Positions 3,464 through 29,035 of a DNA stretch of 32,000 nt are shown piece by piece. The notes under the pieces are model-generated. The model made no database searches and was not told the DNA's origin. It saw only the letters and a program-made list of their open reading frames with translations. A program made the translations under genes and the position numbers. The stretch is from contig PXDW01000025.1 of the NCBI GenBank assembly GCA_003564925.1, forward strand, positions 1 to 32,000. The letters run 5' to 3'. The DNA is from Candidatus Woesearchaeota archaeon (GTDB lineage Archaea; Nanobdellota; Nanobdellia; Woesearchaeales; PXDW01). Each line of letters starts with the position of its first letter. Position 1 is the first letter of the stretch.

Positions 3464-4651
3464 GTGAAAAGAAATTTTTTAGATATATTCAAGCTTGTTA
3501 TGCCTATTTCTAGTTATAAGAAGAGCTATCTAAAGAGACTTGGCAAATATCTTGACGAGAATGAGATAAAACAGGTAAGATACCTTTCTAAATTGGGCAG
3601 AATCGGTTTTTCAAATGCTAGCCTTGGTCTTAGTGAAAAGCTTATGCTAGATGTGGATTATCCCCAGCTTAATTTAGCTTCTACAGAAAAAGACATTAAA
3701 AAATTTGTTGAAAATATAAACTCCAACATACATTATAAAATAATGAAGTCAGCATTTAAGCAGTTTTCAGAAAATGCCGAAAAAAAAATAAAAAAATATG
3801 TAGCAGATAACATTGTTGGCTTAGATGTTGTTAAAGAAGCATGCATATTACAGCTTTTCGCATCAGACAGAATCCACATACTTTTACTTGGCGATCCTCA
3901 AACTGGAAAAACAGATATTGTAAGATCTATATCTAACCTGCATCCAATAACCAGCTTTGGTCTGGGATCTGGAATATCGGGAGTTGGGTTAGCATTGACA
4001 GCAAAAGGAGATAATATAATAAAAGGTCTTTTGCCAAAAGCAGACCAGGGAATATGCTGTATAGACGAATTAAATCTAATGAATCAAAAAGACCGGGCTT
4101 CATTATATTCAGCTATGGAAAAGGGATTCGTTGCTTATGACAAAGGGTCAAAACATGTACGACTTGATGCAAATGTTAGGGTTTTAGCAACAGCAAATCC
4201 CAAGCTTGATAAATTTGTAGGAAAAACAGTAGAGGTATTAAAAGAACAGCTTCCGTTTGACGAAGCATTAATCTCGAGATTCAACTTAGTTTTTTTAATA
4301 AGATATCCTGATATTAAGGGATTTCTAGAAATTACTAAAAAGATTGTGCATCAGGATCCGACTGTTTTAGTTAATGAGGACATAAGTTTTATTAAAGAAT
4401 ATGTTAGTTTTGCAGAGAACATAAAAGTCGATTTTCCTAAAGGCCTCGAAAAAGAGGTTGTAAATTTTGTTGAGTATTTAAAAAGAAATGAAGAAGATTT
4501 TTTAGTAAGCGTTGGACCAAGAACCATTATTGGGTTTATTAGGATGTGCAAGGCCAACGCACGCTTAAATCTAAGAACAGAAGTTACGAGAAAAGATATT
4601 GATAAGATAAAAAAAATATTTGAAGAAGTTCTTTTTATAAGAAGAAAATAA
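3464..4651 (+). CDS. MCM-family AAA+ ATPase lacking the canonical N-terminal OB/Zn domain (mini-MCM)
   Basis: Walker A is LLLGDPQTGKTD. Walker B is CCIDELNLM. Sensor 1 is VRVLATANP. The MCM-type arginine finger is ALISRFNLVF. Sensor-2 region is VGPRTIIGFIRMCKANARL. The protein is only 395 aa, with about 140 aa before Walker A and no Cys4 motif. GTG start. Confidence 0.7.
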   Translation: MKRNFLDIFKLVMPISSYKKSYLKRLGKYLDENEIKQVRYLSKLGRIGFSNASLGLSEKLMLDVDYPQLNLASTEKDIKKFVENINSNIHYKIMKSAFKQFSENAEKKIKKYVADNIVGLDVVKEACILQLFASDRIHILLLGDPQTGKTDIVRSISNLHPITSFGLGSGISGVGLALTAKGDNIIKGLLPKADQGICCIDELNLMNQKDRASLYSAMEKGFVAYDKGSKHVRLDANVRVLATANPKLDKFVGKTVEVLKEQLPFDEALISRFNLVFLIRYPDIKGFLEITKKIVHQDPTVLVNEDISFIKEYVSFAENIKVDFPKGLEKEVVNFVEYLKRNEEDFLVSVGPRTIIGFIRMCKANARLNLRTEVTRKDIDKIKKIFEEVLFIRRK

Positions 4652-4695: not shown

Positions 4696-5016
4696 ATGCT
4701 TGATACAATTGCTGCAAAAGAGGTTATTTCTCGTGCCAAAAAACATGGCGATGTTAAAAGGATAGTTGTCGAAGTTGGAGATTTTTCATCAACAAAAGCA
4801 GAAGATTTAGAGAAACTATTGAAAAAATTTGTGAATTGGGCTATTGAAGTAATAAAAAAGCCAGCATTTGTTAAATGTTTTTGTGGTTATGAAGGTGAAC
4901 CAAAAGTACTTGAAAGAACGAAGGACTTTGTTATGTTTTGCTGCCCTAAATGCATGCTTGTTCCTGAAGATATAAGTGGAACAAAAATTATATTGAAAAA
5001 AATAATTCTTCAATAA
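4696..5016 (+). CDS. hypA: HypA-like hydrogenase nickel-insertion/Zn-ribbon protein (divergent)
   Basis: Length and layout fit HypA. An N-terminal helix is followed by VKRIVVEVGDFSSTKAEDLEKL, compared with the xVxVxxGxLxxVxPExL pattern. The C-terminal Cys pairs are KCFCGYEG…FCCPKCML. The ORF track starts at TTG 4684. The protein begins MLDT, not the canonical MHE. Confidence 0.55.
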   Translation: MLDTIAAKEVISRAKKHGDVKRIVVEVGDFSSTKAEDLEKLLKKFVNWAIEVIKKPAFVKCFCGYEGEPKVLERTKDFVMFCCPKCMLVPEDISGTKIILKKIILQ

Positions 5017-5048: not shown

Positions 5049-5429
5049 ATGGAAGTTGTATTGGTCTTCGGAAATCCTTATGCAGACGATGATAATCTGG
5101 CTATAGAGATAGCGCAGGACCTGAAGATTGACGGTGTTGATTTCAAAATACTTCAAAACCCCGATGATATTCTAAACTATAAAAAAAATGAAAGGCTGTT
5201 CATACTTGATGTTTTAAGGAATGTCGATGATTTTATACTTGTTAAAGACTACAAAAAATTGGAAGAAAGAAAGATATTCTCTGTTAAAGATTTTGATTTA
5301 GGTTTTTTCTTAGATTTAATCAAAAAAACAGGAAAATTGAAGGAGACAATTATAATTGGGATACCTGAGGACGGAGATAAATTCTTGCTAAAACAAAAAA
5401 TTAAAGATGTGATGGAAAGTTTTAAATAG
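5049..5429 (+). CDS. Hydrogenase maturation endopeptidase-like protein (HycI/HybD/FrhD family, divergent)
   Basis: VLVFGNPYADDDNLAIEIAQDL matches GNxxxGDDGxG. RLFILDV matches the second Asp site. The position equivalent to the conserved His (FSVKDFDLGFFLDL) reads Asp. ETIIIGIPED matches the C-terminal xxGIxP pattern. Confidence 0.55.
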   Translation: MEVVLVFGNPYADDDNLAIEIAQDLKIDGVDFKILQNPDDILNYKKNERLFILDVLRNVDDFILVKDYKKLEERKIFSVKDFDLGFFLDLIKKTGKLKETIIIGIPEDGDKFLLKQKIKDVMESFK

Positions 5430-5450: not shown

Positions 5451-6422
5451 ATGGGCAAGTTGCTTAAAAAAGAAGATTTGAATAGATTTCTTAGTAATCT
5501 AAAGGGAATATATGAAATAATTGCTCCAGTAAAAAAAGATATTGTTAGATATGATGTTATAAAAAATATAAATGAGATATATTTAGATGAAAAGCCTTTT
5601 TTTTCTGCAAAAAAATTCTTTTTTCCTAAAAAAGAAACTTTGTTTGATTTTCCTCAAAGAAGACATTTTAAAAAAAGAATGAAACCAAGGATAATATTCG
5701 GAATGAGAAACTGCGATGCGAATTCTTTGCTTGTTTTAGATAAACTTTATTTGGAAGGTTTCGTAGATGAAAAATACAAGCAAAAAAGGGAAAAAACCAT
5801 AATTATAACGATACCTTGCGATGAACCAGAAGAGAATTGTTTTTGTGGTTCTCTTAACCTGAAAGATTATTATGATTTAAAATTTATAGATATAGGTCCT
5901 TCTTATTATATTGAGGTCGGATCAGAGAAAGGAAAAAGGCTTGTGCACAGGTTTAAAGATCATAAGATGATTGGTGAAAAGCAGGATTTGGACTTTATAA
6001 AAATACTAAATAAAAGGAATGATTTGAAAAAATATTTTAATGACTCTTTATGGGAAAAAGAGGCAGAAAAGTGTTTAAGCTGTTCAATGTGCGTAAATAT
6101 ATGCCCAACATGCACCTGCTTCGATATAGTTGATGAAGTTGATCTTAGCCTTAAAGAGGGAAAAAGGTCAAGAATAAGCGACTCATGCCACCTTAAGTCA
6201 TTCACAGAAATTTCAGGAGGTAAAATTTTCAGAGAGAGCAGATATGAAAGATTAAGACATTTTGTTTTGCATAAGCTTCAATATTTTAAGGATAAGCATA
6301 ATATTAATTTGTGTATTGGATGCGGAAGATGTATAACTATATGCCCTTCTAAAATAGATTTGGTGGAGATCTCGAATAATTTGGGCAAAAATAAAAATCC
6401 TAAAAAACAAAATGATAAATAA
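5451..6422 (+). CDS. Sulfhydrogenase beta (HydB/AsrA-like) Fe-S subunit
   Basis: Two ferredoxin-type motifs, CLSCSMCVNICPTCTC and CIGCGRCITICP, plus an upstream PCDEPEENCFCG cluster. Its position upstream of a PyrK/AsrB-like gene matches the beta-gamma-delta-alpha order of Pyrococcus-type group 3b hydrogenases. Confidence 0.7.
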   Translation: MGKLLKKEDLNRFLSNLKGIYEIIAPVKKDIVRYDVIKNINEIYLDEKPFFSAKKFFFPKKETLFDFPQRRHFKKRMKPRIIFGMRNCDANSLLVLDKLYLEGFVDEKYKQKREKTIIITIPCDEPEENCFCGSLNLKDYYDLKFIDIGPSYYIEVGSEKGKRLVHRFKDHKMIGEKQDLDFIKILNKRNDLKKYFNDSLWEKEAEKCLSCSMCVNICPTCTCFDIVDEVDLSLKEGKRSRISDSCHLKSFTEISGGKIFRESRYERLRHFVLHKLQYFKDKHNINLCIGCGRCITICPSKIDLVEISNNLGKNKNPKKQNDK

Positions 6423-6454: not shown

Positions 6455-7231
6455 ATGGACTATAAGCCTATTCAAGTTGAAATTTTGAAGAAAGAGAAAT
6501 TTACAAAAGACACATTCTTGTTGAGATTGAAGCATAAAGTAAAAGACAATCCAGGAAAATTTTTGATGGTTGGTTTGCTTGGGATAGGCGAATGCCCCAT
6601 ATCTATATGCTCAAGCCAAAAATCATATACGGAGTTATTAATAAAGAAAAAAGGAAAAGTTACTCAAAAATTGTCGGAACTTAAAAAAAAAGATAAAGTT
6701 TATGTAAGGGGGCCTTTGGGTTCTGGTTATCCAATGGAAAATTTAGAGGGAAACAGTCTTGTTTTGATTGGTGTAGAATCAGGAATTGCTTCTTTAAGAT
6801 CTGTGGTTAAATATGTCGAAAAAAAAAGGACAAAGTATAAGGAAATTGAAATATTCCTGGGATTTAAAAATCCAGAGCGTATTATTTTTGATGAAGATAT
6901 AGAAAAATGGAAAAAACAATATAAAACCCACATGATTTTTGACAATAAAGATGAGTCCAATTTCTATGATATCTTTGCAACAGATTTATTTAAAAAACAA
7001 AGTATAAATTTAAACAAGGCTTTTGTTTTAATATGTGTGCCGCCGGATATGATAATTCCAACAATAAAAAAAACAAAGATCTTAGGATTTAAAGATAATA
7101 GGATATATCTAAGTCTTGAGAGGCATATGAAATGTGGTCTTGGAAAATGCGGACATTGCATGATAAAAGGTCATCATATTTGCGTAGATGGGCCTGTTTT
7201 TAGATATGATAATATATCGGATGATTTATAA
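6455..7231 (+). CDS. Sulfhydrogenase gamma (HydG/AsrB/PyrK-like) FAD/NAD(P)-binding subunit with a C-terminal [2Fe-2S]
   Basis: Ferredoxin-reductase-like fold signatures (VRGPLGSGY, LIGVESGIASL). C-terminal MKCGLGKCGHCMI…ICVDGPVF cluster motif. The stop overlaps the next start by 1 nt (TAATG). Confidence 0.75.
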   Translation: MDYKPIQVEILKKEKFTKDTFLLRLKHKVKDNPGKFLMVGLLGIGECPISICSSQKSYTELLIKKKGKVTQKLSELKKKDKVYVRGPLGSGYPMENLEGNSLVLIGVESGIASLRSVVKYVEKKRTKYKEIEIFLGFKNPERIIFDEDIEKWKKQYKTHMIFDNKDESNFYDIFATDLFKKQSINLNKAFVLICVPPDMIIPTIKKTKILGFKDNRIYLSLERHMKCGLGKCGHCMIKGHHICVDGPVFRYDNISDDL

Positions 7232-9321
7232 TGAAGCCAAAAATAGCATTAATTAGCTTGACGGGATGTGGAGGATGTGAATTATCATTGTTATTTACAG
7301 GTGAAGTTTTATTAGACTTAGTCAAGAATTTTGATTTTCGTATCCTTAACATTTTTAATAAGAACAATGTTCAAAATCAATATTCTGAATACGAAGCTGT
7401 TTTTGTTTCTGGTTTGGTTGCAGATAAGCGAGATATTGAATTGTTGCAAAAATATAGAAAAAAATCAAAAATTCTTATTGCATTAGGCGCTTGCTCTGTT
7501 CATGGAAATGTTTATTCTTTGAAACAAACAATAGATTCAACCCATAAAAATCAAGAATTTAACTCTGAAAAATCTAAGAATAGCTCATTGATTGAAGCTG
7601 TCGCATTAAGGCCTATATCAGAATATGTGAAGGTTGATTTTTCAATACCTGGCTGTCCGCCAGATAGCTCTGAAACTATAAGTCATATCAAGGATATAAT
7701 GATTGGAAAAAAGTTAGTTGAAAATGAAAAGCCAGTTTGTTTCCATTGTAGCTTAAATGAAAATTTCTGTTTGCTTAAAAATGGAAAAGAATGCATCGGG
7801 CCTTTAATAAAATCGGGTTGCGACTCTTTATGCCCATCATTCAATAAAGAATGCACTGGCTGCAGAGGCCCAATAAATGATGGAAATATTGACGAAATAA
7901 AAAAAATATTTAGTGATAAAGGAATTAGTTTTGATATATTAAAAGAAAAAATAAGCAAATATGCAAAAATAGAATTTGATAAACTCATGAATAAAGAAAA
8001 TAGAAAAAAGATTGATTATGACATCAAGGAACGAAAGATAATAAAAGAAATAAAGAATAATTCTGAAAATATATCTGGACAATATTCTGTATATTTGGAT
8101 TTGCGTAATGGAAAATTAAACGATTGCAGACTTGAATATTCAGAAAATTCAATATTATTTGAAGAGATATTAAAAGGAAAACATTTTTCCGATATTCCTG
8201 AAATAGTATCCAGGATGTGCGGAATAACTAGTTGTTTTCATGTTATAACTTCTATCAAGGCCATAGAGAATGCATTTAATATACAAATTACAGAGCAAAC
8301 AAAATTATTAAGAGAGCTTTTAGCTATAGGGGAGTTAATAAGAAGCCATTCAATACATATCTATTTAGTCGTACTTCCTAATTATTTTGGATTTGATTCA
8401 GGAATTGAAATGATGTTAAAAAATAAAAAAGAAACTAAAAGAGCACTAGAGCTGATTAATGTGGGAAATAGCCTTATAGAATTGATTGGAGGAAGAGTTA
8501 TTCATCCTGTCACTTTTGAGGTTGGATACAATACTTATGTTCCTGAAAAATCCAAACTTGAAGAGATTTTAAAAATACTGAAAATTTCAAAAAAAGAAGC
8601 TATAAAAACATCAGAGATTTTATTATCATTAGATCTTACTTTTTTTGAAAGGAAAACAGAATATATCTCTCTTAGACAGCTAGATAATTTTCCATCACTA
8701 AGCGGAGATATTATTTCTACGAAGGGATTGAATATAAATCCCCAAACTTATAGAAAATATTTTAATGAGGTTAAATTGCCTAATTCGAAAGGAAAATTAG
8801 TTTTTAAAAATAATAAGACTTACTTTACAGGTGCTTTAGCAAGGGTAAACAATAACTCAAGGCTTTTATGTAAAGAGGCTGAAACATTAGTCAGGAAATC
8901 GAGAAGGAAATTTCCGAATTATAATCCTTTATTGAATAATTTTGCTCAATCTCTTGAGATTATAAACTGGATTGATAGAGCTATAGAAATAATAACTAAT
9001 TGGGATTTCAAGGAAGAGATTAAGCATGATATAAAACCAAAATCTGAAAGAGGTATTGGTGTAACAGAGTCTCCCCAAGGACTACTAATCCATGATTATG
9101 AATTTAATTCAAAAGGCTGTATAAACAAGTGTAGCATTATCACGCCAACAGCTCAGATAATAAAAAACCTTGAAGAAGATATAAAAGCCTATGCTTCACA
9201 AAATTTAACTGACAAACAAGATAATGAAATAAGGTCAGAAATTGAAATGTTGGTTAAATCTTATGGTCTCCAATTGTTTGGCGGGGGAAATACTGTAGAT
9301 TTCATCATAAAAAGGAATTAA
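7231..9321 (+). CDS. Fused [NiFe]-hydrogenase small (delta) plus large (alpha) subunit-like protein, group 3b-like, with a non-canonical active-site motif set
   Basis: N-terminal half has small-subunit motifs: LISLTGCGGCELS, ALGACSVHGN, IPGCPP and CFHCSLNENFC…CIGPLIKSGCDSLCP…CTGCRGP. A K/E/I-rich linker spans about 7970-8060. C-terminal half has large-subunit motifs: SRMCGITSCFHV (L1-like, 8212-8241), GGRVIHP and GVTESPQGLLIHDY…IITPTAQ. The C-terminus reads VKSYGLQLFGGGN (9253-9291) where DPCxxCxxH is expected. Confidence 0.8.
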   Translation: MKPKIALISLTGCGGCELSLLFTGEVLLDLVKNFDFRILNIFNKNNVQNQYSEYEAVFVSGLVADKRDIELLQKYRKKSKILIALGACSVHGNVYSLKQTIDSTHKNQEFNSEKSKNSSLIEAVALRPISEYVKVDFSIPGCPPDSSETISHIKDIMIGKKLVENEKPVCFHCSLNENFCLLKNGKECIGPLIKSGCDSLCPSFNKECTGCRGPINDGNIDEIKKIFSDKGISFDILKEKISKYAKIEFDKLMNKENRKKIDYDIKERKIIKEIKNNSENISGQYSVYLDLRNGKLNDCRLEYSENSILFEEILKGKHFSDIPEIVSRMCGITSCFHVITSIKAIENAFNIQITEQTKLLRELLAIGELIRSHSIHIYLVVLPNYFGFDSGIEMMLKNKKETKRALELINVGNSLIELIGGRVIHPVTFEVGYNTYVPEKSKLEEILKILKISKKEAIKTSEILLSLDLTFFERKTEYISLRQLDNFPSLSGDIISTKGLNINPQTYRKYFNEVKLPNSKGKLVFKNNKTYFTGALARVNNNSRLLCKEAETLVRKSRRKFPNYNPLLNNFAQSLEIINWIDRAIEIITNWDFKEEIKHDIKPKSERGIGVTESPQGLLIHDYEFNSKGCINKCSIITPTAQIIKNLEEDIKAYASQNLTDKQDNEIRSEIEMLVKSYGLQLFGGGNTVDFIIKRN

Positions 9322-9417: not shown

Positions 9418-9975
9418 ATGTCATTTGTTGATTTTTTAGTAATTTTAGGGACCGGCCTTTGGAGCTTATTTTTAATCTGGATTTCAATTTTTATAGCACC
9501 TTTTAGAAATCCAGAGGTTCTTTGGATATTGATACCCATATATTTATTCTGGATATTTACTGAGATATACCAGGAAAAAAGAAAAACCAGCTTTGGGAAT
9601 GCAATATCTAATGGGGCTGTTGTTCTTTGGGTAGGAATTGACTGGACAAGATATTTGATAAGGCAATTAGGGACCGATATGTCTTTGGGCTTTGATTTTT
9701 ATTCAAAAATAGCGCTTTCTATATTTGTATTTGTTTATGGGGTTGTAATAATATTGTATGGCATAAAAGTAAAAAGATTTATTCCAAGAATTGGAAGAAT
9801 AAGAGAAATAACTTACGTTCTTATAATGTTCACTCCAATAATATATGGTGTAGTGAAATTAAATTTTCAAACTATATCTGCAATTGTTTTATTTTTCCTG
9901 CCTTTTTATTTCATAATAGAGTTTATAAACCGTAAAGTTCCAGATCCTTCAACTTATGAAGGTTCTTCATTATAA
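9418..9975 (+). CDS. Integral membrane protein of unknown function (about 5 TM segments)
   Basis: Hydrophobic segments throughout (LVILGTGLWSLFLIWISIFIAPF, VLWILIPIYLFWIF, and others). GAGGTG SD at 9408-9413. Confidence 0.55.
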   Translation: MSFVDFLVILGTGLWSLFLIWISIFIAPFRNPEVLWILIPIYLFWIFTEIYQEKRKTSFGNAISNGAVVLWVGIDWTRYLIRQLGTDMSLGFDFYSKIALSIFVFVYGVVIILYGIKVKRFIPRIGRIREITYVLIMFTPIIYGVVKLNFQTISAIVLFFLPFYFIIEFINRKVPDPSTYEGSSL

Positions 9976-15735: not shown

Positions 15736-16326
15736 TTATTTTTCATTCATAAGGTATTTCTTTGCATTATGAATTCCTGTAGCGAAAATCCCTCCTGCCA
15801 CTGCTGTATAAAATTGAAATAAACCCATAGTCATTAGAAAAATTGAAGGAACAAGGTTGAATTTATAAAGTGCAAATGCCGCGCTGAAAATAAAAATAGA
15901 TTTTATCGTAGCTCCAAACACAATAACAAACATCATGTTTTTTTTATTTTCTAATCTTAATTTCTTAAAACAATACACTAATATTGCATTTCCGATCCAT
16001 ATAAATGGAATCATAAAAATCAAGAAATAAGTGAAATGTCCAAATATGATTCCTCTGGATAAAACCGCTAAGCTTGGAAGCATTATTGATGGAAACAACA
16101 TCTTGGATTTTAGATTTAATGCGCTCAGGACTAAAGATGCATTAACAATTATGCCTACAACTAATTGAGGATTCCCTATAAAGAAAGGGACAAAAAAACA
16201 AATTAAAGAGTATAAGGTGAGCTCAAAATATTCTGCCCTCAAGCTTAATTTATAATCTTGAATATTTAGTTTTTCAAATATTTTGTATCTGTTGTAATCC
16301 AATATTTTTCCTATTCTTACATACAT
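15736..16326 (-). CDS. Polytopic membrane protein of unknown function, translationally coupled to hydA
   Basis: About 5-6 hydrophobic helices. ATG at 16326-16324 overlaps the hydA TAA stop by 1 nt (TAATG). The ORF track start is GTG 16338. Confidence 0.5.
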   Translation of the reverse strand: MYVRIGKILDYNRYKIFEKLNIQDYKLSLRAEYFELTLYSLICFFVPFFIGNPQLVVGIIVNASLVLSALNLKSKMLFPSIMLPSLAVLSRGIIFGHFTYFLIFMIPFIWIGNAILVYCFKKLRLENKKNMMFVIVFGATIKSIFIFSAAFALYKFNLVPSIFLMTMGLFQFYTAVAGGIFATGIHNAKKYLMNEK

Positions 16327-18059
16327 TAAAGATAGCACCTTTTTTTGTATTTTGTATGTAGCAGCCTATGCGCTCTTTTTTGCCCTGGTTTTCCAATATA
16401 TTCTTTATATATCTTTATTACCGAAGGATTCAAATGAGACTTTCTTATCTTTGTTTTTTTATCATTGTCTATAATGGCTTTTTGGCGCTGTTTTAAGTTT
16501 TCAATATCATCATATCTGGGCTGTCCGCCTCCCCCTATACATCCTCCATAACAGGCCATAATCTCAACAAAATGATAAGCACAATTTCCTTCCCTAATAT
16601 CTTCCATAATCTTTCTTGCTTCCCCTAATGTATGAACTGCACAGACTTTTATTTCTTTGCCCGCAAGTTTTATACTGCCTTCTTTTATTGTACCAAATCC
16701 CCTTATTTGCTTATAATCAATTTTCCTTAAATCCTTTTTGGTTAAATAATCTGCAGCAGTCCTTAGAGCTGCTTCCATTACTCCTCCTGTTTTTCCAAAT
16801 ATTGTTCCAGCGCCAGTACTTTCTCCTAATGGATTGTCAAACTCTTCTTTTTCAAGATTGACAAAATCAATATTATATTGTTTTATAAGTTTTGCAAGCT
16901 CCACAGTAGTTAAAACATAATCAGCTTCGCCTTTAAATTCGTCTCTTTGAATCTCGAATTTTTTTGCAGTACATGGCATTATATCAACAACAATGATATC
17001 TTTTGGTTTCTTATTTATTTTCTTAGCATAATATGTTTTTACTAATGAGGCAAGCATAGCCTGTGGACTTCTGCAGCTTGACATATGATTAAGCTGCTCA
17101 AAATAAAATTGCTCTGCAAATTTTATCCAGGCCGGACAACATGTAGTAATCATTGGCAAATCCCTATTTTCCTTAAATCGCTTGACAAATTCTGTTGCTT
17201 CTTCAACAATTGTTATATCCGCAGCAAAGTCTGTGCTAAATACCTTATCAAAGCCAATTGCTTTAAGAGCGGCGACCATTTTTCCTGTAACGACAGTTCC
17301 GGGCTTCATATTGAAGCATTCGCCAAGAGTTGCCCTTATTGAGGGGGCGGTTTGCGCCACTAGGAATTTTCCAGAGTTTAAGGCATTTGTCACTTCTTCA
17401 ATATCACTATTTTCTGATAATGCTCCAGTAGGACACACTATTACACATTGGCCGCAGTTTACACAGTTGCTTTTTTCCATGTTCAAACCCAAAGGTGGCG
17501 CAACTTTCATATCAAATCCCCTATTTTGCTTTCCAATTGCATAAACGGTCTGTATACCATTGCAAACTCTTGTGCACTGTTCGCATAGGATACATTTCTC
17601 ATTGTCTCTCCAAATAGAGATGCTTGATTTATCCTTCTTTTCTTTTCTTTTTTCTCCTTCATACCTTATTTTATGAATAAGAAGATCCTCTGAATATCTC
17701 TGCAGTTTGCAGTTCAGGTTTTGGTTGCAAGTAAGACAGTCTCTGTCATGATTTGCTAAAAGAAGCTCAATATTTATTCTTCTTGCCTTCAAGACCCTTG
17801 GGCTTCTTGTATTAACAACCATTCCTTCACGAATATAGGTAGAGCATGAGGGAGCAAGCCTTTTCATTCCTTGAATCTCGACTACACAAAGCCTGCAAGA
17901 GCCAATTCGCTCCAGCCTTTCATTTGTACAAATATGAGGAATTTCAATATTATGTCTTTTTGCAACATCCAGAAGATATTCTCCTCTTTTTCCTTCAACC
18001 TCTTTATTGTCTAAAATGAATTTTATTTTTTCTGAATTTTGCTTTTTTGCTTTTTTCAT
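16326..18059 (-). CDS. hydA: [FeFe] hydrogenase catalytic subunit HydA (CpI-like M3 architecture)
   Basis: All three H-cluster motifs are intact: ITTCCPAWIKF, MPCTAKKFE and EIMACYGGCIGGGGQP. The N-terminal region has a [2Fe-2S] site (SCRLCVVEI), a His-ligated cluster (HDRDCLTCNQNLNC) and two ferredoxin motifs (CILCEQCTRVC, CVNCGQCVIVCP). Confidence 0.92.
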   Translation of the reverse strand: MKKAKKQNSEKIKFILDNKEVEGKRGEYLLDVAKRHNIEIPHICTNERLERIGSCRLCVVEIQGMKRLAPSCSTYIREGMVVNTRSPRVLKARRINIELLLANHDRDCLTCNQNLNCKLQRYSEDLLIHKIRYEGEKRKEKKDKSSISIWRDNEKCILCEQCTRVCNGIQTVYAIGKQNRGFDMKVAPPLGLNMEKSNCVNCGQCVIVCPTGALSENSDIEEVTNALNSGKFLVAQTAPSIRATLGECFNMKPGTVVTGKMVAALKAIGFDKVFSTDFAADITIVEEATEFVKRFKENRDLPMITTCCPAWIKFAEQFYFEQLNHMSSCRSPQAMLASLVKTYYAKKINKKPKDIIVVDIMPCTAKKFEIQRDEFKGEADYVLTTVELAKLIKQYNIDFVNLEKEEFDNPLGESTGAGTIFGKTGGVMEAALRTAADYLTKKDLRKIDYKQIRGFGTIKEGSIKLAGKEIKVCAVHTLGEARKIMEDIREGNCAYHFVEIMACYGGCIGGGGQPRYDDIENLKQRQKAIIDNDKKTKIRKSHLNPSVIKIYKEYIGKPGQKRAHRLLHTKYKKRCYL

Positions 18060-18110
18060 TTTGTATTTTTTAATTAATTGTGATTTTATTGATTTTGTTT
18101 TCTCGAGTTA

Positions 18111-19844
18111 TTATTTTTTTTCTATAGCCTTGAACGCACAAACTATATAACATTGCCCGCACTTTATACATTTTTCTTGGTCTATTATATGCATTTTTTT
18201 CTGCTTTCCTTCTATTGCATTTACAGGGCATACTTTGGAACACGCTCCACATCCTACACAATTTTCATTTATTGTGTATGAAAGCAATGCCTCGCACACG
18301 CCTGCAGAACATTTCTTTTCCTTTATATGCATTATATACTCTTTTTTAAAGTGTTTTAATGTTGAAATAATAGGGTTAGGGGCATTTTGGCCAAGTCCAC
18401 AAAGCGAGGTATCTTGAACAAATTCTGCAAGCTCTTGTATTCTTTTTAAAGTTTCTTCTGTGCCATTTCCTCTTGATATCTGAGTTAACATCTCAAGCAG
18501 CCTTTTTGTCCCTTCTCTGCAAGGAGTGCATTTCCCGCAGCTTTCCTCTTGTGTAAAACTTGTAAAGTATTTTGCAACACTTACCATACACGATGTGTTG
18601 TTTGTTATAATAAACCCTCCCGAGCCCATAATTGTTCCCAGACTTGCCATAACCTCAAAATCCAGAGGATTTTCCAAATCTTTTTTTGTAAGACATCCTC
18701 CTGCAGGCCCTCCCGAGAGGAGCGCTTTAAATTTTGTATTATCGGGACAACCTCCCCCAATAGAGAAAACAATTTCTTTAATTTTTATTCCGAATGGAAC
18801 CTCTATAACTCCTGTTCTTTTAACTTTTCCAGTTAGGCATAATATTTTTGTTCCTTTAGTATTCTTTGTTCCTATTTTTTTATATTCCTTTAAGCCTATT
18901 TTGAATATAGTTGTTACGTGCCCCCATGTTCCAACATTATTTACATTAGTAGGTTTTCTGTACAGCCCTTTTTCTCCAGGATATGGCGGCCTAGACATAG
19001 GATGGCCTCTTTTGCCTTCTATGCTTCTAATCATTGCTGTTTCCTCTCCACATACAAAAGCGCCAGCCCCTTTAATAATTTTTAATTCAAAATCAAATCC
19101 TTTTTTTCCAAGGATATTTTTGCCTAGAAGATTATTTTTGTAAGCCAAATCGATTGCATTTTGTAAAGTTTTTATTGCAAGGGGGTACTCCGCTCTTGTA
19201 TATATTATTCCTTCTTTTGCATTGGTTGCATAGGATCCTATAGTCATGCCCTCTATTATTCTAAAAGGATCAGATTCCATAAGAGCCCTGTTCATAAAAG
19301 CTCCTGGATCACCTTCATCTCCGTTGCATATTAAGTATTTTTCTCCTTTCTTTTTTGCTATAATCTGCCATTTTTTTCCAGTAGAAAATCCAGCCCCACC
19401 TCTTCCCCTAAGCTCGGCATCAAGAATTTCCTTAATAACTTCGGCAGGGGTGAGTGAAAGGGCTTTTTTTAATGAGCTGTACCCTCCTTTCTCTAAATAA
19501 TCTTCAATTTTATCTGGGTTTATAATTCCGCAATTTTCCATTACTATCCTTTTTTGTTTTTTATAGAAATTTAAGGAATCAATATTTTTTGCTATAAAAA
19601 GCTCTCTGCACATTTTATTTTTCTTTATGCAGTCAATCAAATCCTTGACATTTCTCTCTGTTACATTTCCATAAATCTCTTTGCTTTTTTCTTTAATTAC
19701 AGTAACAATAGGCTCATTATAGCACATACCTATACATCCTACTTTTTCAACAGGAAGATTGGCTTTTTTTAACTCATTGTATACTGGCATAGCTCCTGAT
19801 GATATCCCACAGGTTGCAAGCCCGACTGTAATTTTTTTTATCAT
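18111..19844 (-). CDS. hydB: HydB / NuoF-like flavoprotein subunit of a bifurcating-type [FeFe] hydrogenase
   Basis: N-terminal thioredoxin-like [2Fe-2S] region (GLATCGISSGA…CIGMCYNEP). NADH/FMN motifs GRGGAGFSTGKKW and GAGAFVCGEETA. CGKCTPCREG. C-terminal 2x[4Fe-4S] (CVGCGACSKVCP, CIKCGQCYIVC). Confidence 0.9.
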   Translation of the reverse strand: MIKKITVGLATCGISSGAMPVYNELKKANLPVEKVGCIGMCYNEPIVTVIKEKSKEIYGNVTERNVKDLIDCIKKNKMCRELFIAKNIDSLNFYKKQKRIVMENCGIINPDKIEDYLEKGGYSSLKKALSLTPAEVIKEILDAELRGRGGAGFSTGKKWQIIAKKKGEKYLICNGDEGDPGAFMNRALMESDPFRIIEGMTIGSYATNAKEGIIYTRAEYPLAIKTLQNAIDLAYKNNLLGKNILGKKGFDFELKIIKGAGAFVCGEETAMIRSIEGKRGHPMSRPPYPGEKGLYRKPTNVNNVGTWGHVTTIFKIGLKEYKKIGTKNTKGTKILCLTGKVKRTGVIEVPFGIKIKEIVFSIGGGCPDNTKFKALLSGGPAGGCLTKKDLENPLDFEVMASLGTIMGSGGFIITNNTSCMVSVAKYFTSFTQEESCGKCTPCREGTKRLLEMLTQISRGNGTEETLKRIQELAEFVQDTSLCGLGQNAPNPIISTLKHFKKEYIMHIKEKKCSAGVCEALLSYTINENCVGCGACSKVCPVNAIEGKQKKMHIIDQEKCIKCGQCYIVCAFKAIEKK

Positions 19845-19906
19845 TTTTCTATTGGATTATTTTTTTTTATTGTTTTAAGCCATTATTTTTTATAAGCTAC
19901 TAAAAA

Positions 19907-20506
19907 TTATTCCAAACCATCCAAAATTTTTTTAATCTTTTCTTCGTCAAGATCACCATATACAGTATTGTTAATCATCATAGCCGGGGCTTTTGCGCAA
20001 GCCCCTATACAATTGACAGATCCTAAGCTAAATTTTTTGTCCTTGGTTGTTTCATTTACTTTTATATCAAGGATATTCTCTATATATCTTATTAAAGACA
20101 CGGAGTTTTTTACGTGGCATGCTGTCCCGTTGCAAACAGCAATATTATATTTTCCCGGAGGATTAAACCTAAAATATGTATAGAATGTCAGAACACCATA
20201 AATATGGGTGGCAGGTATATTAATCTCTTTTGACAGTCTTATTATATTTTCTTCTGATATGTATCCTTCATTTTCCTGTATTTCCTGGAGCATTATTATT
20301 ACATTTTTTTTCTGTTTTTTTTCAAATAATTCTGGATTGGATTTGACATCTTTAAGAAATTTCTTTTTTAGGGAATTAAGATATTCTGTATTCGGCTTTT
20401 TTTTCCCTATATATCTAATATAAGGCTTGAATTTTTCATTTTGTATTGAATAGAAAAGAAAGAAATAGCTATTATTTCCTAATTGCACCTCTTTTAAAAA
20501 AACCAT
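19907..20506 (-). CDS. hydC: HydC / NuoE-like [2Fe-2S] subunit
   Basis: GVLTFYTYFRFNPPGKYNIAVCNGTACHV…CIGACAKAP. The N-terminal 55 aa or so are unconserved-looking, so the start codon is uncertain. Confidence 0.8.
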   Translation of the reverse strand: MVFLKEVQLGNNSYFFLFYSIQNEKFKPYIRYIGKKKPNTEYLNSLKKKFLKDVKSNPELFEKKQKKNVIIMLQEIQENEGYISEENIIRLSKEINIPATHIYGVLTFYTYFRFNPPGKYNIAVCNGTACHVKNSVSLIRYIENILDIKVNETTKDKKFSLGSVNCIGACAKAPAMMINNTVYGDLDEEKIKKILDGLE

Positions 20507-21828: not shown

Positions 21829-24255
21829 ATGAACAAAGCAATTCAAAATATACTATGGTTTAATGAGACTTCTATTGATGATGTTCCTATTGTTGGAGGA
21901 AAAAATGCTTCTCTTGGAGAGATGTATTGTGAATTAACAAGTAAAGGAATAAATGTCCCTAATGGGTTTGCCCTAACAGCGCATGCATATGATTATTTTA
22001 TTGCCCATTCAAAATTGCATATAAAGATTCAGAATATCTTGAGAAAAATAAAAAAAGGGAATGTTGGAAGCCTTCATAAGCACGGATCAGAGATAAGACA
22101 TCTTATTCTTGATTCTGATTTTCCTGAAGACTTGGTTAAGGAAATAAAAGAGGCTTATGAAAAATTATCAAAACAATATAAAACAAATAATGTAGATGTT
22201 GCAGTAAGGAGTTCTGCAACTGCTGAGGACCTTCCGGATGCAAGTTTCGCGGGCCAGCAGGAAACATACCTAAATATAAAAGGATATAAACAGGTTATAG
22301 AAGCTTGTAAAAAATGCATAGCTTCCCTTTATACTGACAGAGCCATAAGCTATAGGGTTGATAAAAAATTCAGCCACTATAAAATTAAGCTTAGTGTTGG
22401 AATACAAAAGATGGTTAGGTCAGACAAGGCAAATTCAGGGGTTATGTTTACAATCGATACTGAATCAGGCTTTAAAGATGTTGTTTATATAACCGCTGCC
22501 TATGGCTTGGGTGAAAATGTTGTGCAGGGAAAGGTAATACCTGATGAGTACTATGTTTTTAAGCCAACACTCAAGGAAGGATTTAAGCCCATAATCTCAA
22601 AGAAGATAGGGTCTAAATCACACAAGATGATTTATGATGATTCAGGGAGCAAGACAACAAAAAATGTTACTGTACCCAAAGAAGACCAAAAAAATATTGT
22701 TTTAAAGAACAATGAAATTCTAAAGCTTGCCGAATGGGGATGTATAATCGAGGATCACTACTCAAAAAAAGCCCATTATTACAAACCCATGGATATTGAA
22801 TGGGCAAAAGATGGGGATACTGGGAAGCTATTTATTGTTCAGGCAAGACCAGAAACGGTCCATAGCCAGAGGGATATCAGCAAATATTATGAATATAGGC
22901 TCAAAAGAAAAGGCAGAATTATCATATCCGGAGCTAGCGTAGGTTCAAAAATAGGCTCAGGAAATGTAAATATAATTAAAGATGTCCGAGAGATGTCTAG
23001 ATTTAAGAAAGGCCAGGTTCTTGTAACTGATATGACAGATCCAGACTGGGAACCTATAATGAAAATAGCTTCCGGCATAATAACAAATAGGGGAGGAAGA
23101 ACCTGTCACGCTGCTATTGTTTCAAGAGAATTAGGAATTCCATGCATTGTGGGGACAATTAACGGAACAAAGGTTCTTAAGAATAATCAGATAGTTACAC
23201 TGGACTGCTCACAGGGCGAACTTGGTTATGTTTACCAGGGAAGTTTGCCTTATGAAAAGAAGGAATACAGCTTGAAGAATTTCAGAAAGACAAGAACAAA
23301 AATAATGCTTAATCTTGGGAATCCTGAAGAGGCTTTTAACTTAAGCTTCATACCGAATGAGGGTGTGGGTCTTGCAAGGGAAGAGTTCATAATCAACTCA
23401 TATATCAAAGTCCATCCTTTGGTTTTGATAGATTACAAAAAATTAGATAATTCAAGATTAAAGGATGAAATAGATGAGCTTACTTATGGTTATAAAGATA
23501 AAACGCAATTCTACATTGATAAGCTTGCAGAAGGGGTGGCTATGCTTGCAGCAGCATTTTATCCAAAAGATGTAATAGTAAGGTTTTCAGATTTTAAAAG
23601 CAATGAGTACGCAAATCTTTTAGGTGGAAAGCTATACGAGCCGAACGAGGACAATCCTATGATAGGTTGGAGAGGCGCATCCCGTTATTATGATAATAAG
23701 TTCAAGAAGGCTTTTGCCCTCGAGTGTAAGGCAATGAAAAAAGTTAGGGAAGAATTTGGGCTAAAAAACCTTAAGCTTATGGTTCCTTTCTGTAGGACAA
23801 TGGATGAAGGTAAAAAGGTTCTTAATGAGATGAAGCTTTCCGGTCTTGAAAGGGGCAAAGACGGATTGGAAGTTTATGTTATGTGCGAAATACCCAGCAA
23901 TGTAATACTTGCAGATGAGTTCGCAAAGGTATTTGACGGTTTTTCCATAGGGACTAATGACTTAACACAGCTTACTCTTGGACTGGACAGGGATTCTGAA
24001 CTTGTTGCAGGAATATATGATGAGAGAAACCCTGCTGTAAAAAGGCTTGTAAGTGATGTTATCTCAGTTGCAAAGCACAACAATAAAAAGATAGGGATAT
24101 GTGGAGATGCACCATCAACTTTTGATGATTTTGCAAAGTTTTTGGTTAAGGAAGGCATTGATTCAATAAGCTTAAGTCCTGATGCTGTAATCAAGACAAC
24201 ACTAAAAATAATAGAGAAAGAAAAAGAATTAGGCATACTGCCCAAATTAAATTAA
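21829..24255 (+). CDS. ppsA: Phosphoenolpyruvate synthase (pyruvate, water dikinase)
   Basis: VPIVGGKNASLGEM, VAVRSSATAEDLPDASFAGQQETYLN, the phosphohistidine loop GGRTCHAAIVSRELGIPCIVG, and GFSIGTNDLTQLTLGLDRD. Confidence 0.92.
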   Translation: MNKAIQNILWFNETSIDDVPIVGGKNASLGEMYCELTSKGINVPNGFALTAHAYDYFIAHSKLHIKIQNILRKIKKGNVGSLHKHGSEIRHLILDSDFPEDLVKEIKEAYEKLSKQYKTNNVDVAVRSSATAEDLPDASFAGQQETYLNIKGYKQVIEACKKCIASLYTDRAISYRVDKKFSHYKIKLSVGIQKMVRSDKANSGVMFTIDTESGFKDVVYITAAYGLGENVVQGKVIPDEYYVFKPTLKEGFKPIISKKIGSKSHKMIYDDSGSKTTKNVTVPKEDQKNIVLKNNEILKLAEWGCIIEDHYSKKAHYYKPMDIEWAKDGDTGKLFIVQARPETVHSQRDISKYYEYRLKRKGRIIISGASVGSKIGSGNVNIIKDVREMSRFKKGQVLVTDMTDPDWEPIMKIASGIITNRGGRTCHAAIVSRELGIPCIVGTINGTKVLKNNQIVTLDCSQGELGYVYQGSLPYEKKEYSLKNFRKTRTKIMLNLGNPEEAFNLSFIPNEGVGLAREEFIINSYIKVHPLVLIDYKKLDNSRLKDEIDELTYGYKDKTQFYIDKLAEGVAMLAAAFYPKDVIVRFSDFKSNEYANLLGGKLYEPNEDNPMIGWRGASRYYDNKFKKAFALECKAMKKVREEFGLKNLKLMVPFCRTMDEGKKVLNEMKLSGLERGKDGLEVYVMCEIPSNVILADEFAKVFDGFSIGTNDLTQLTLGLDRDSELVAGIYDERNPAVKRLVSDVISVAKHNNKKIGICGDAPSTFDDFAKFLVKEGIDSISLSPDAVIKTTLKIIEKEKELGILPKLN

Positions 24256-24303
24256 TTTTTTTATTAGTTTTTATTTACCAGTTTTTAGTATATTCTTTTC
24301 TTA

Positions 24304-24522
24304 TTACCAATCAAAATCTTCGAGATCTCTATGGAAGTCTTCGATATCTTCGCTGTCTAGGTTGTTTTCTAGGTTTCCAAGGCTGTTTATGTTGTCTGTT
24401 ATTTCTTCCAGATCAGTTGACTCTTCTTTTGACTCTGGCTCTTCAGTCTCATATTGGACACATCCTGTGAACAAAACTGATAGAGCAATAATAATCCCTA
24501 ATATCCCAATCACTTTAATCAT
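24304..24522 (-). CDS. Small acidic secreted or lipid-anchored protein
   Basis: 72 aa. Hydrophobic signal segment ending in the lipobox-like LFTGC, then a D/E-rich tail. 4-nt overlap with the upstream gene. Confidence 0.45.
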   Translation of the reverse strand: MIKVIGILGIIIALSVLFTGCVQYETEEPESKEESTDLEEITDNINSLGNLENNLDSEDIEDFHRDLEDFDW

Positions 24523-25550
24523 TTTTCATCAACCTCTATCAATTCATATAATTCATATTTATTAAGTTTTGTTTCATCTGTTATGTCTCCCCCGGACTCT
24601 TTTATTTCATTAATAATCTCTATAAGCAACCTATGGGCATCTTTTAAGTCCTCATGAGCTTGCCTAAGCAATTCTCTTGCTTCATCTATCATTTCTAAGT
24701 CGGGATAAGTGTCAGAGCTTTTAAGCAATGATGAAGCTTCATTATATTTAATCTTTGCATCAAGTACGTATTCACTAAATTCATCAACTTTTTCGCTTAT
24801 TACTTCAATATCTATTCCTTGTTTTTCCATATCATCAAGAATATTGTCAAGTCTCTGCTCTAAAAGCTCGCTTCTTCTTAATATATTCCAGACTTCTCCA
24901 CTTACTAAGTTTGCTACATATAATCTTTCTCTGTTTTTAAATCTGTTCCATACACTATTTATATCTCTTGCAGCTTCTCTGATTTCCTCTTTTGTCTCCG
25001 CGGCTTTTGCTACTAATATTGATTCATGCATCTCTTCTATGGCTTTTTTGATATCAATCACCATATGTTGAGCTTTTTCGTCATCAATTTCTTCAGAAGC
25101 TAAAACAAGATTTTTTATCTTATTTAGATGTTCTATTGTCATATAAGCTCCATTTATTATAAAGTTTCTTGCATTTTCAAGAGCCTTTTCTTCAATATTT
25201 TCACATTCTTCATTGTCTGAACCAATACATTCTCTTAATTGCTCTCTTATTTGATGAAAATCTTCTCTCTTATCCCTAAAAACTGAATTGTACTGGGCAT
25301 ACTTACTTACTGCCTGGCCGTAATTCATTAATGCTTCTTTCTTAACTTCTTCTCCAACTTCTCTTTTCCTATAAACAAAATCTACATCTATGGGCCTTAA
25401 TTCGTATTTGTCTATAGCTTGTATAGCATTCTCCTTTCCCATTTCTAAAATTCTTTTCTGCTCTGCCCTTAACATATTTGAGAATACTTTTTTTTGCTCC
25501 ACACTTAAATTTTCAATAAGCTCTGAAGAATCAATCTTTGATTTAACCAA
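24519..25550 (-). CDS. Acidic, predicted all-helical/coiled-coil protein of unknown function. The open frame continues upstream to 25736 without a start codon.
   Basis: 343-aa ORF from TTG 25550, rich in E/K/D heptad-like sequence. See the finding on the in-frame TAA at 25737-25739. Confidence 0.55.
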   Translation of the reverse strand: MVKSKIDSSELIENLSVEQKKVFSNMLRAEQKRILEMGKENAIQAIDKYELRPIDVDFVYRKREVGEEVKKEALMNYGQAVSKYAQYNSVFRDKREDFHQIREQLRECIGSDNEECENIEEKALENARNFIINGAYMTIEHLNKIKNLVLASEEIDDEKAQHMVIDIKKAIEEMHESILVAKAAETKEEIREAARDINSVWNRFKNRERLYVANLVSGEVWNILRRSELLEQRLDNILDDMEKQGIDIEVISEKVDEFSEYVLDAKIKYNEASSLLKSSDTYPDLEMIDEARELLRQAHEDLKDAHRLLIEIINEIKESGGDITDETKLNKYELYELIEVDEK

Positions 25551-25736
25551 TCTTTTTATATCCTCACCAATATCAGAGCTTTCAGCAGAGTCATCCTGTT
25601 CTAATATTTTTTTTGATGATTCAGCGGCTATTTCTGAAATGCTTTGTCTTGGAGATGACGCGCTTTCTACAGGTTCTCTAAGATCTTTGGGTGGGGAACC
25701 AGCATTATCGCTGCCAACTGAAGTATCTTCAGACTC

Positions 25737-25910
25737 TTATTTTATTCCAAAAATAATTGGCATTCCTGCTCTAACCTGTCTTTGATCTTTTTCTTCATTA
25801 TCGTCTATGGCAGATGCTGCTATTATAAAGCTAGATAAAAAGACACCTAACATACATATAACAGTAATTGCCTTTATAATACTTTTTGCCTTTATAATAC
25901 TTTTTTTCAT
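25737..25910 (-). CDS. 57-aa signal-anchor ORF, in frame with the downstream coiled-coil ORF; probable N-terminus of an interrupted gene
   Basis: MKKSIIKAKSIIKAITVICMLGVFLSSFIIAASA… is a basic N-region followed by a hydrophobic helix. It ends at TAA 25739-25737, in the same frame as 24519-25550. Confidence 0.4.
   Translation of the reverse strand: MKKSIIKAKSIIKAITVICMLGVFLSSFIIAASAIDDNEEKDQRQVRAGMPIIFGIK
25870..25905. repeat. Perfect 18-bp tandem duplication (GCCTTTATAATACTTTTT x2)
   Basis: 25870-25887 equals 25888-25905 exactly. It encodes the duplicated KSIIKA hexapeptide at the N-terminus of the signal-anchor ORF. Confidence 0.9.
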
Positions 25911-26149
25911 TTTACCACCTTTGTTATTTTAAATTTAATCTATTAGTTTGCTCATAATATTTTAATTTCATTTACTCCAATATATTTTTATTTTCCTATT
26001 TCTATTCTCATGCTAAAAAATAAAAAAATAAAATAAAACCTCTTTTTTTACTGTGGGTGGGCTGTTACAGAATGAGAAATCTGTCAGCTTTCTTTAAGTT
26101 GTAAAGTATATCTTATTTATAAATAAACTTTTTTTTATATCTAAAAAAA

Positions 26150-26179
26150 GCTTTACGATACTTTACAAAGCTTTAGAAT
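26150..26179. promoter_or_regulatory. Three 10-bp-phased direct repeats containing CTTTA (gCTTTAcgat / aCTTTAcaaa / gCTTTAgaat); candidate operator
   Basis: The repeats start at 26150, 26160 and 26170. The middle one is part of an 11-bp inverted repeat with 26099-26109. They lie 77-106 nt upstream of the wHTH regulator gene. Confidence 0.35.
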
Positions 26180-26255
26180 AATAAATATCTATAATTAAAA
26201 TCTTTATGGCATTTATAAGGAAAGATTTTTATATTCTTTAATAAGAAATTATATC

Positions 26256-26933: not shown

Positions 26934-27008
26934 CACAACTTATTTCTTAAAAAACCATGTTAAACAAACCAAAAATATTATAAACCATTTATCTCTTTAA
27001 ATTATAAA

Positions 27009-27923: not shown

Positions 27924-27964
27924 TTGCATAAATCATTATAAAATTCTAACAATAAATTTTATAA

Positions 27965-29034
<1,070 letters not shown>

Positions 29035-29035
<1 letters not shown>

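Follow-up and report, generated by a model that had tools for sequence, protein, structure and literature searches.

The window analysed here, a stretch of 32,000 nucleotides of contig PXDW01000025.1 from a Candidatus Woesearchaeota archaeon, contains at positions 7231 to 9321 an open reading frame (ORF) of 696 amino acids (aa) that unites in one chain the delta and alpha subunits encoded by a beta-gamma-delta-alpha operon for a soluble group 3b [NiFe]-hydrogenase. Our analyses indicate that the alpha domain of this protein has lost canonical Ni-Fe binding and that the NAD(P)H-binding domain of the adjacent gamma subunit has been eroded, while the iron-sulfur (Fe-S) ligands have been kept. It appears probable, if some way short of certain, that the ORF encodes an H2-inactive hydrogenase relic, retained as an Fe-S scaffold and displaced by the [FeFe]-hydrogenase HydABC, whose genes lie elsewhere in the window. 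The fused gene and its two domains are as follows.

7231..9321, plus strand: fused delta-alpha ORF, 696 aa; its first base is shared with the gamma stop codon.
7231..7998, plus strand: small-subunit (delta) domain, aa 1-256, with 12 of 12 Fe-S cysteines present.
8035..9321, plus strand: large-subunit (alpha) domain, with the hydrogenase fold kept and the Ni-Fe site gone according to AlphaFold2 (AF2), Foldseek and alignment.

The initial annotation, made from the letters of the sequence, had proposed a fusion of a small and a large hydrogenase subunit, and both the Pfam domains on 7231-9321 and the homology to sulfhydrogenase I (SHI) of Pyrococcus furiosus bore this out. Pfam placed Oxidored_q6 at aa 13-153 and NiFeSe_Hases at aa 310-379, the latter over profile positions 3-72 only, and every NCBIfam equivalog model scored the ORF far under its cut-off. 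The best solved homologues were the delta subunit of P. furiosus SHI for the small-subunit part (aa 2-242, E 2e-40) and the alpha subunit of the same enzyme for the large-subunit part (aa 281-678, E 5e-53). All the cluster motifs of the small subunit are complete, as had been claimed: CGGC (aa 13-16), GAC (aa 86-88), GCPP (aa 141-144) and the eight-cysteine distal region (aa 170-211) aligned to P. furiosus delta, and the 12 cysteines concerned (C13, C16, C88, C142, C170, C173, C180, C188, C197, C201, C208 and C211) paired Cys-for-Cys with those of the P. furiosus protein and of the relatives. The AF2 model, which covers the large domain alone, reached a pLDDT of 91.9 and a pTM of 0.91, and its top structural match in Foldseek was P. 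furiosus SHI alpha (9nf0_H, TM 0.88). Low confidence was confined to the linker and to residues 415-419 of the large domain, with pLDDT below 50 at large-domain residues 1-13.

Within this conserved fold the catalytic site appears dismantled, and the changes that carry this conclusion are located in the following segments.

8071..8088, plus strand: ISGQYS substitutes for IEGHAS, so that the EGH motif is left without its proton-gate Glu and its His (alignment).
8212..8241, plus strand: RMCGITSCFH as L1 motif; C330, the first ligand Cys, is retained, and Thr occupies the position of the second.
9067..9081, plus strand: ESPQG instead of EAPRG, without the conserved active-site Arg; the Ala-to-Ser change is common to five other degenerate lineages.
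9259..9321, plus strand: C-terminus SYGLQLFGGGNTVDFIIKRN and stop codon, as long as the AYDPCFSCSTHFLELKLKKD for which it stands; neither of the two L2 cysteines remains, nor does the cleavage-site His.

The L1 motif reads exactly as first reported, with Thr as second ligand, and only one of the four Ni-Fe cysteine ligands, Cys330, is left, in line with the earlier estimate of one or two. CGxC is present in the L1 motif of six close relatives, which read RICGICSCAH, as well as in that of three more distant homologues. The Cys that follows the Thr by two residues is indeed there; its candidature as a shifted ligand was rejected, for the same Cys is a normal residue throughout the family. At the C-terminus the window carries GLQLFGGGN where the relatives have DPCFSCSTH, so that the reported lack of DPCxxC was upheld, with SYGLQLFGGGNTVDFIIKRN instead of AYDPCFSCSTHFLELKLKKD. 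Both alternative 3' frames lack DPCxxC too, as the initial annotation stated, though one of the two stays open for about 30 codons (LWSPIVWRGKYCRFHH...) and does not show the immediate stop described there. A frameshift at the 3' end was discarded as a candidate; since the C-termini are of equal length and continue to resemble each other over the final ten residues, the loss of the motif came about by point substitution.

The substitutions extend well beyond the ligands themselves. Twenty-five of the 75 positions that are invariant across nine homologues differ in the window, and 13 of these 25 belong to the shell of the Ni-Fe site, all 13 being retained in each of the nine homologues compared. 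In large-domain numbering they comprise E14S and H16Q in the EGH motif, R40I in ExxRxFE, C65T in L1, D116N in PDY, A346S and R348Q in EAPRG, and D411G, P412L, C413Q, S415F, C416G and H419N in DPCxSCxxH. The positions of E14, R348 and D116, invariant in the nine homologues, are at least 90% conserved in 147 aligned sequences. ESPQG, listed at the outset among the intact fold signatures, is thus an altered EAPRG in which both Ala and Arg have been replaced (Ala to Ser, Arg to Gln). The CINKC pair put forward as substitute ligands is unlikely to play that part, given that its second Cys is ordinary in the close clade and that the Arg, Glu, Asp and C-terminal His, together with His2 of the HypA-like protein encoded upstream, are gone. 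On the evidence of these residues, canonical Ni-Fe binding is lost in the alpha domain. As the centre could no longer be bound in the canonical manner, H2 chemistry has almost certainly ended and the domain would neither activate nor evolve H2, which agrees with the earlier suggestion that H2 is no longer made or used.

The opposite end of the predicted electron-transfer chain is affected as well. The genes on either side of the fused ORF are these.

4696..5016, plus strand: HypA-like nickel chaperone gene (Pfam HypA E 3e-5; NCBIfam HypA E 1e-7, under cut-off).
5049..5429, plus strand: 126-aa protein with weak likeness to hydrogenase maturation endopeptidase (TIGR00072 E 0.0018, under cut-off).
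5451..6422, plus strand: beta subunit, HydB/AsrA-like, with two 4Fe-4S ferredoxin motifs (Fer4_22 E 4e-30; AsrA and HydB models match).
6455..7231, plus strand: gamma subunit, with FAD, 2Fe-2S and NAD-binding fold (Pfam; alignments including P. furiosus gamma 9nez_C).
9418..9975, plus strand: 185-aa multi-pass membrane ORF between the fused gene and the ACD genes, in the window only.

The partner subunits had both been described as intact, a statement that is true of beta and not of gamma. Beta shares 81% identity with its counterpart at the related locus L001, a value equal to that of the canonical locus L004 against L001, and shows no acceleration. In gamma, the FAD and 2Fe-2S domains are as conserved as they are among the relatives and the four 2Fe-2S cysteines are kept, whereas the NAD(P)H-binding motifs are degraded: ESGIAS stands for GxGxxP and CVPP for CGPP, and in sliding-identity comparisons the NAD-binding domain (aa 101-200) matches the relatives at 0.40-0.55 versus 0.62-0.88 among the relatives themselves. 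By these motifs and values the NAD(P)H-binding domain is specifically eroded, and the proposal of an NAD(P)H-linked redox module is not supported.

The maturation genes of the locus point in the same direction. The HypA-like protein starts with MLD in the window versus MHD in L001 (65% identity), the His2 of the MHE nickel motif being lost and the Zn-binding cysteines being kept; His2 of HypA is critical for Ni binding (PMC7055735). The gene for HypC and a HypC-like gene, which in L001 lie between HypA and the protease-like gene, are absent from this position in the window, where only 32 nt separate the two. The 126-aa protease-like protein has 71% identity to its L001 orthologue and is also present in L004, directly 5' of beta. 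As separate observations on these genes, the His that follows the second CxxC of HypA (EHAKG in L001) is Asp in the window, and the ORF list places the HypA start at an upstream TTG, at 4684, which would add four residues. The 185-aa membrane ORF had no Pfam or NCBIfam match and no tblastn match in the related loci, and it is absent from the corresponding position in L001, L002 and L004.

The joining of the two subunits could be traced to the DNA level by alignment to L001 and L002, and involves two adjacent features.

7996..8016, plus strand: fusion junction GAAAATAGAAAAAAGATTGAT; the relatives read ...AAAATGAGAAAAAAGATTGA, where the frames of the delta TGA and of the alpha ATG overlap.
8017..8052, plus strand: 36-nt in-frame insertion YDIKERKIIKEI, found in no relative, which makes the linker longer.

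In the relatives, the end of delta and the start of alpha both fall inside ATGAGAAAAAAGATTGA, in overlapping frames; the window reads ATAGAAAAAAGATTGAT and misses one G between nt 8001 and 8002. The comparison of the two sequences establishes that deletion of 1 G in the 17-nt delta/alpha overlap removed the alpha start codon and joined the delta frame to the alpha frame. Ahead of the first beta-strand of alpha, no start codon occurs in frame from which this domain could be made separately. Fusions of a small to a large subunit do occur in nature, namely in P0015, P0020, P0025, P0114 and P0127 (566-592 aa), and no other fusion of the long-delta type was found among 1.84 billion representatives. 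This singularity, the A-runs that flank the site and the fact that adding one G restores both a canonical delta end (...NEKKD*) and an alpha start (MRKKID...) are what an error of sequencing or assembly at nt 8001/8002, wrongly merging separate delta and alpha genes, would leave behind. We regard such an artefact as distinctly improbable: the missing base lies outside any homopolymer, the remaining genes of the window show no damage relative to their orthologues, the junction is followed directly by 36 nt inserted in frame and found in the window only, and natural delta-alpha fusions exist. Moreover, the loss of the Ni-Fe site by 13 point substitutions holds even if the fusion is not real.

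The degeneration appeared restricted to the lineage of the window. Gene order is shared between the window and L001, L002 and L004, and runs HerA, MCM, HypA, 126-aa protease-like gene, beta, gamma, delta, alpha, ACD and POR (pyruvate:ferredoxin oxidoreductase). In the six close relatives P0002-P0007 the large subunit is a protein of its own, 427-428 aa long, canonical in its motifs and with 53-60% identity in the alignment, and a neighbour-joining tree of 138 full-length homologues put the window inside this canonical clade, with P0002/P0003 as its sister group and a branch exceeding theirs in length about sixfold. Because these six relatives are unfused and fully canonical, the loss is specific to the window lineage, and the fusion and substitutions are not conserved among orthologues, a pattern for which the initial annotation had left room. 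When contigs were scanned with the alignment only canonical relatives were recovered, peptides of the window protein matched nothing, and the exact-sequence look-up returned no record. A swap of gamma, delta and alpha by recombination from a distant donor was rejected, as the divergence is domain-specific and not block-like and the window nests in the close clade. As to L004 (CAZENX010000003.1), it is the closest species-representative genome, with 62% identity in the large subunit and the same operon; its label, 'uncultured Methanosarcinales archaeon', is probably wrong, the next-nearest relatives being all Nanoarchaeia or Woesearchaeota.

Substitution rates along the window branch, expressed as three-taxon estimates of nonsynonymous divergence (dN) from pairwise values, were raised in the three subunits of interest: 0.23 in alpha versus 0.04-0.06 on the branches of the relatives, 0.27 in delta versus 0.04-0.07, and 0.20 in gamma versus 0.06-0.10. 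In the flanking ACD and POR genes the window branch amounted to about 0.05 versus approximately 0.02-0.08 in the relatives. The expectation under free decay was obtained by a neutral simulation in which the genes of the relatives evolved with the AT bias of the genome to the observed extra divergence (400 runs). The mean number of stop codons acquired by the simulated genes was 12.3 for alpha, 7.2 for delta and 5.4 for gamma, and stop-free runs numbered 0 of 400, 0 of 400 and 1 of 400, respectively; the observed genes contain none in each case. All the indels are in frame except the one that made the fusion. All 16 Fe-S cysteines (12 in delta and 4 in gamma) have been kept versus one of the four Ni-Fe cysteines (Fisher p = 0.0035). 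Substitution in alpha is regionally heterogeneous (chi-square 61.8 with 20 degrees of freedom, p = 4e-6), its 40 N-terminal and 28 C-terminal residues being the most degraded (0.30-0.40 match versus 0.85-0.98 among the relatives) and three blocks being still 95% matched. Since stops are lacking, the Fe-S cysteines are kept, beta is not accelerated and rates differ by region, these genes are still selected: the reading frame, the 16 Fe-S cysteines, the FAD domain of gamma, several blocks of alpha and the whole of beta are under purifying selection. The idea of a decaying gene, one of the possibilities raised at first, consequently fits the catalytic segments, which have decayed, and fails for the whole, where no stops were found against some 12, 7 and 5 expected and 16 of 16 Fe-S cysteines persist.

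Loss of the Ni-Fe ligands recurred in other lineages. Among the 138 full-length representatives nearest to the query, the ligands are missing in seven (about 5%), that is, in the window, P0012, P0016, P0022, P0031, P0044 and P0085, which are scattered over several places of the tree. A single ancient degenerate family was rejected, P0012 having canonical nearest relatives. The loci that carry these sequences are given below.

L084: P0012.
L085 and L086: P0022.
L087: P0031.
L088: P0044.
L089: P0085.
L090: P0016.

The operons of L084 and L085 are whole beta-gamma-delta-alpha sets that keep the 12 delta and 4 gamma cysteines, with a dead alpha and with gamma NAD motifs that are degraded or gone. 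Beta of L085 retains 45% identity to L001 versus 40-43% in canonical operons of similar distance, and its gamma, delta and alpha fall well under the canonical values. Wherever delta is on the contig, the Fe-S ligands are kept in the degenerate lineages, except in P0085. The replacements themselves converge, Ala346 having become Ser in six of the seven lineages and the second L1 Cys, retained in P0016, having given way to Ser or Thr in five of the six others, a coincidence that points to selection for a stable cofactor-free fold.

A second hydrogenase is encoded on the opposite strand of the window; like the degenerate HypA and the recurrence in other lineages, it had gone unnoticed in the initial annotation.

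15736..20506, minus strand: [FeFe]-hydrogenase cluster of four genes (Pfam Fe_hyd_lg_C 6e-95, Fe_hyd_SSU, Complex1_51K and 2Fe-2S_thioredx).
15736-16338, minus strand: 200-aa multi-pass membrane protein in the [FeFe] cluster.
16326-18059, minus strand: HydA, with the H-cluster motifs TTCCPAW, MPCTAKKFE and EIMACYGGCIGGGGQP intact.
18111-19844, minus strand: HydB/NuoF-like protein in the [FeFe] cluster.
19907-20506, minus strand: HydC/NuoE-like protein in the [FeFe] cluster.

The cluster combines the H-cluster motifs, a NuoF-like HydB and a NuoE-like HydC, as group A3 enzymes do. It is inserted, in this lineage only, between an MtN3-like and an MscS gene, whose orthologues in L001 lie close together without the block, and the sequenced parts of L002 and L004 contain no HydABC. 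Genes for hydE, hydF and hydG are absent from the window. HydABC adjoins the POR genes, and an arrangement of group A3 HydABC beside POR, with a membrane protein of 4 to 6 helices, has been described in DPANN archaea (PMC11216029). The same window encodes POR and ACD. HydABC might hence dispose of glycolytic NADH and of POR-derived reduced ferredoxin as H2, and it probably made the [NiFe] chemistry redundant and replaced the [NiFe] enzyme. A fermentative gene island occupies 21829-31277 on the plus strand and includes the following genes.

21829-24255, plus strand: PPDK/PEP synthase-like.
27009-27923, plus strand: class II fructose-bisphosphate aldolase.
28043-29035, plus strand: GAPDH.
29035-30150, plus strand: DUF362 protein with a 4Fe-4S ferredoxin domain.
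30147-31277, plus strand: PGK.

In the reading that we favour, delta-alpha would persist as an Fe-S (and flavin) electron-transfer scaffold around an unchanged beta, and the alpha domain, devoid of cofactor, would serve it as a structural partner and lend stability to the Fe-S domain of delta. Several observations weigh against it. Synonymous divergence (dS) is saturated, from 1.0 to more than 2.3, in every pair, and no reliable branch dN/dS can be obtained from it. With a mean BLOSUM62 score of -0.03, versus -0.29 for neutral single-step changes (p = 0.07), replacements in alpha are only slightly more conservative than expected, and sites without variation in nine homologues were substituted no less frequently (33%) than less conserved ones, so that the constraint on alpha must be weak outside a few blocks. 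Every degenerate homologue found is a singleton cluster with canonical nearest relatives, which would suit short-lived evolutionary dead ends. In P0085 (L089) cysteines of the proximal cluster have gone as well, and no beta and gamma lie nearby. The link to HydABC is drawn from one genome with it versus three relatives without it, in local regions only, and the fusion hinges on one base of the assembly. With both the H2 and the NAD(P)H sites gone, finally, no donor or acceptor can be named, and the Fe-S chain is left without identified ends.

Part of these observations would be accommodated by a plain pseudogene in slow decay, in which gamma, delta and alpha have been drifting since the arrival of HydABC and the open frame and cysteines are residual. 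The change of 25 of the 75 universally invariant sites at the same rate as less conserved ones, a replacement spectrum close to the neutral expectation, the 4- to 6-fold acceleration of dN, the singleton status of all the degenerate homologues beside canonical nearest relatives, and a locus with a degraded HypA and without HypC are all in keeping with such drift. We nevertheless find it rather unlikely, for drift alone should have left about 25 stops in 2091 + 777 nt where there are none; it does not account for indels that are in frame save the fusing one, for 16 of 16 Fe-S cysteines, for a beta that is not accelerated or for the strong regional heterogeneity of the rates, and the operon of L085, though far more diverged, displays this selective retention too. 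At the other extreme, the protein could be a neofunctionalised enzyme, in which a new substrate, for instance sulfane sulfur or another small oxidant, is served by the Ni-Fe pocket left empty beside the proximal [4Fe-4S] cluster, and which would parallel, in a soluble group 3b scaffold, the passage from membrane-bound hydrogenase to MBS and to complex I. An Fe-S chain kept up to the proximal cluster, convergent pocket substitutions (Ala346 to Ser in 6 of 7; L1 Cys to Ser or Thr in 5 of 6), recurrence in at least three or four lineages and an extra Cys, C630, close to the IITPT strand would all suit this possibility. It is rendered improbable by the lack of any positive sign of a substrate and by the nature of the convergent changes, which are small, isosteric and also expected from the stabilisation of an empty pocket; besides, the N- and C-terminal segments that form the pocket are the least conserved and have low model confidence, contrary to what a new active site should display. 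Hardly credible is a hydrogenase still at work with non-canonical ligands (C330 plus C335, C630 or C634) or another metal site. The four cysteines C330, C335, C630 and C634 do remain in segments that are near the active site of canonical enzymes; yet C335 and C634 are ordinary residues in the close canonical clade, the catalytic Arg, proton-gate Glu, Asp partner and C-terminal His are gone, HypA is without its His2, HypC is absent at the locus, and a complete [FeFe]-hydrogenase is present.

Comparison with P. furiosus SHI (HydBGDA; HyhBGSL), the group 3b reference, revealed the same four-subunit beta-gamma-delta-alpha operon with all subunits homologous, the same alpha fold (TM 0.88) and the same 12-Cys delta, and the window nests among canonical DPANN 3b-type enzymes. 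It differs from SHI in that delta and alpha form one chain, three of the four Ni-Fe cysteines have been lost together with the Arg, Glu, Asp and C-terminal His, the NAD(P)H motifs of gamma are degraded and HypA is without His2. Large-subunit folds devoid of the Ni-Fe cysteines, with a small subunit that keeps an Fe-S cluster, are familiar from the group 4-derived NuoD/NuoB, FpoD, Ehr and Mbx/MBS, and Ni-free modules derived from hydrogenases are so far known only from this membrane-bound group 4 lineage. Unlike those modules, which are membrane-bound, ancient and widespread and have a defined substrate (quinone, sulfane sulfur), the window protein is soluble, derived from group 3b, lineage-specific and recent; it keeps three clusters, and its similarity to the group 4-derived modules is trivial (FpoD E 0.004). 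The window operon has no membrane antiporter-like genes, and its best matches are all soluble group 3 enzymes. The natural fusions P0015, P0020, P0025, P0114 and P0127 resemble the window in having the small subunit N-terminal and the large one C-terminal, but their small subunit is of about 170 aa, their L1 and L2 are canonical, and they make up a clade of their own far from the window, whose fusion arose independently of the P0015-type, via the 1-nt deletion.

Two further systems come close in gene content. The hybrid archaeal [FeFe]/[NiFe] complexes (group F/G with 3f/3g), as portrayed in PMC11216029, likewise bring a group 3 module and an [FeFe] enzyme with HydB and HydC into one region; their small subunit is fused to HydA, and the ligands of the H-cluster and of the three Fe-S clusters are reported to be conserved. 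In the window, by contrast, the fusion partner of the small subunit is a dead large subunit, and HydABC is separate, on the opposite strand and 6 kb off. The neighbouring cluster 15736-20506 is in turn similar to the group A3 HydABC of DPANN described in PMC11216029, with which it shares HydA, HydB, HydC, the membrane protein and the adjacency to POR. The passages searched in that source hold no description of HydABC together with a degenerate 3b operon.

The selective erasure of both catalytic ends, with retention of the electron-transfer sites and of beta, in several independent lineages makes two questions testable, namely the role of the sulfhydrogenase beta and gamma subunits beyond hydrogenase and the recruitment of hydrogenase scaffolds to new redox roles. 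The locus looks like a before-and-after view of an [FeFe] enzyme replacing a [NiFe] one, with canonical orthologous operons at hand for comparison. A broader and doubtful conjecture is that soluble group 3b hydrogenases of DPANN repeatedly yield a Ni-free class of Fe-S flavoproteins, which would drop the H2 and NAD(P)H sites, keep beta, the FAD domain and the full set of four or five Fe-S clusters, and acquire a new redox reaction or partner at the vacated pocket (or at beta), possibly coupled to a co-resident [FeFe] hydrogenase, the window being its most derived member. If true, this class would be the soluble counterpart of the transitions from hydrogenase to complex I and to MBS, caught in progress; no account of soluble group 3b enzymes or complexes without Ni ligands was found in the searchable literature. 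In the meantime, the automated names 'sulfhydrogenase subunit alpha' and 'Ni/Fe hydrogenase' are given to the window gene and to the degenerate homologues, and because of such names metabolic reconstructions of DPANN could credit H2 metabolism to an enzyme incapable of it.

Some peculiarities of the compared sequences deserve mention in their own right. P0013 and P0179 (549 and 563 aa) are canonical large subunits that continue for about 130 aa past DPCxSCxxH at the C-terminus, and P0179 has PF02663 in its precomputed Pfam annotation. Very long C-terminal tails rich in Lys, Ala and Glu (200-280 residues) occur on the small subunits at L088 1-741 and in P0153 (542 aa). In the window itself, a short MCM-like AAA+ protein of 395 aa is encoded at 3464-4651 on the plus strand, directly 5' of HypA; it consists of the P-loop and lid domains only and shares 74% identity with its L001 counterpart.

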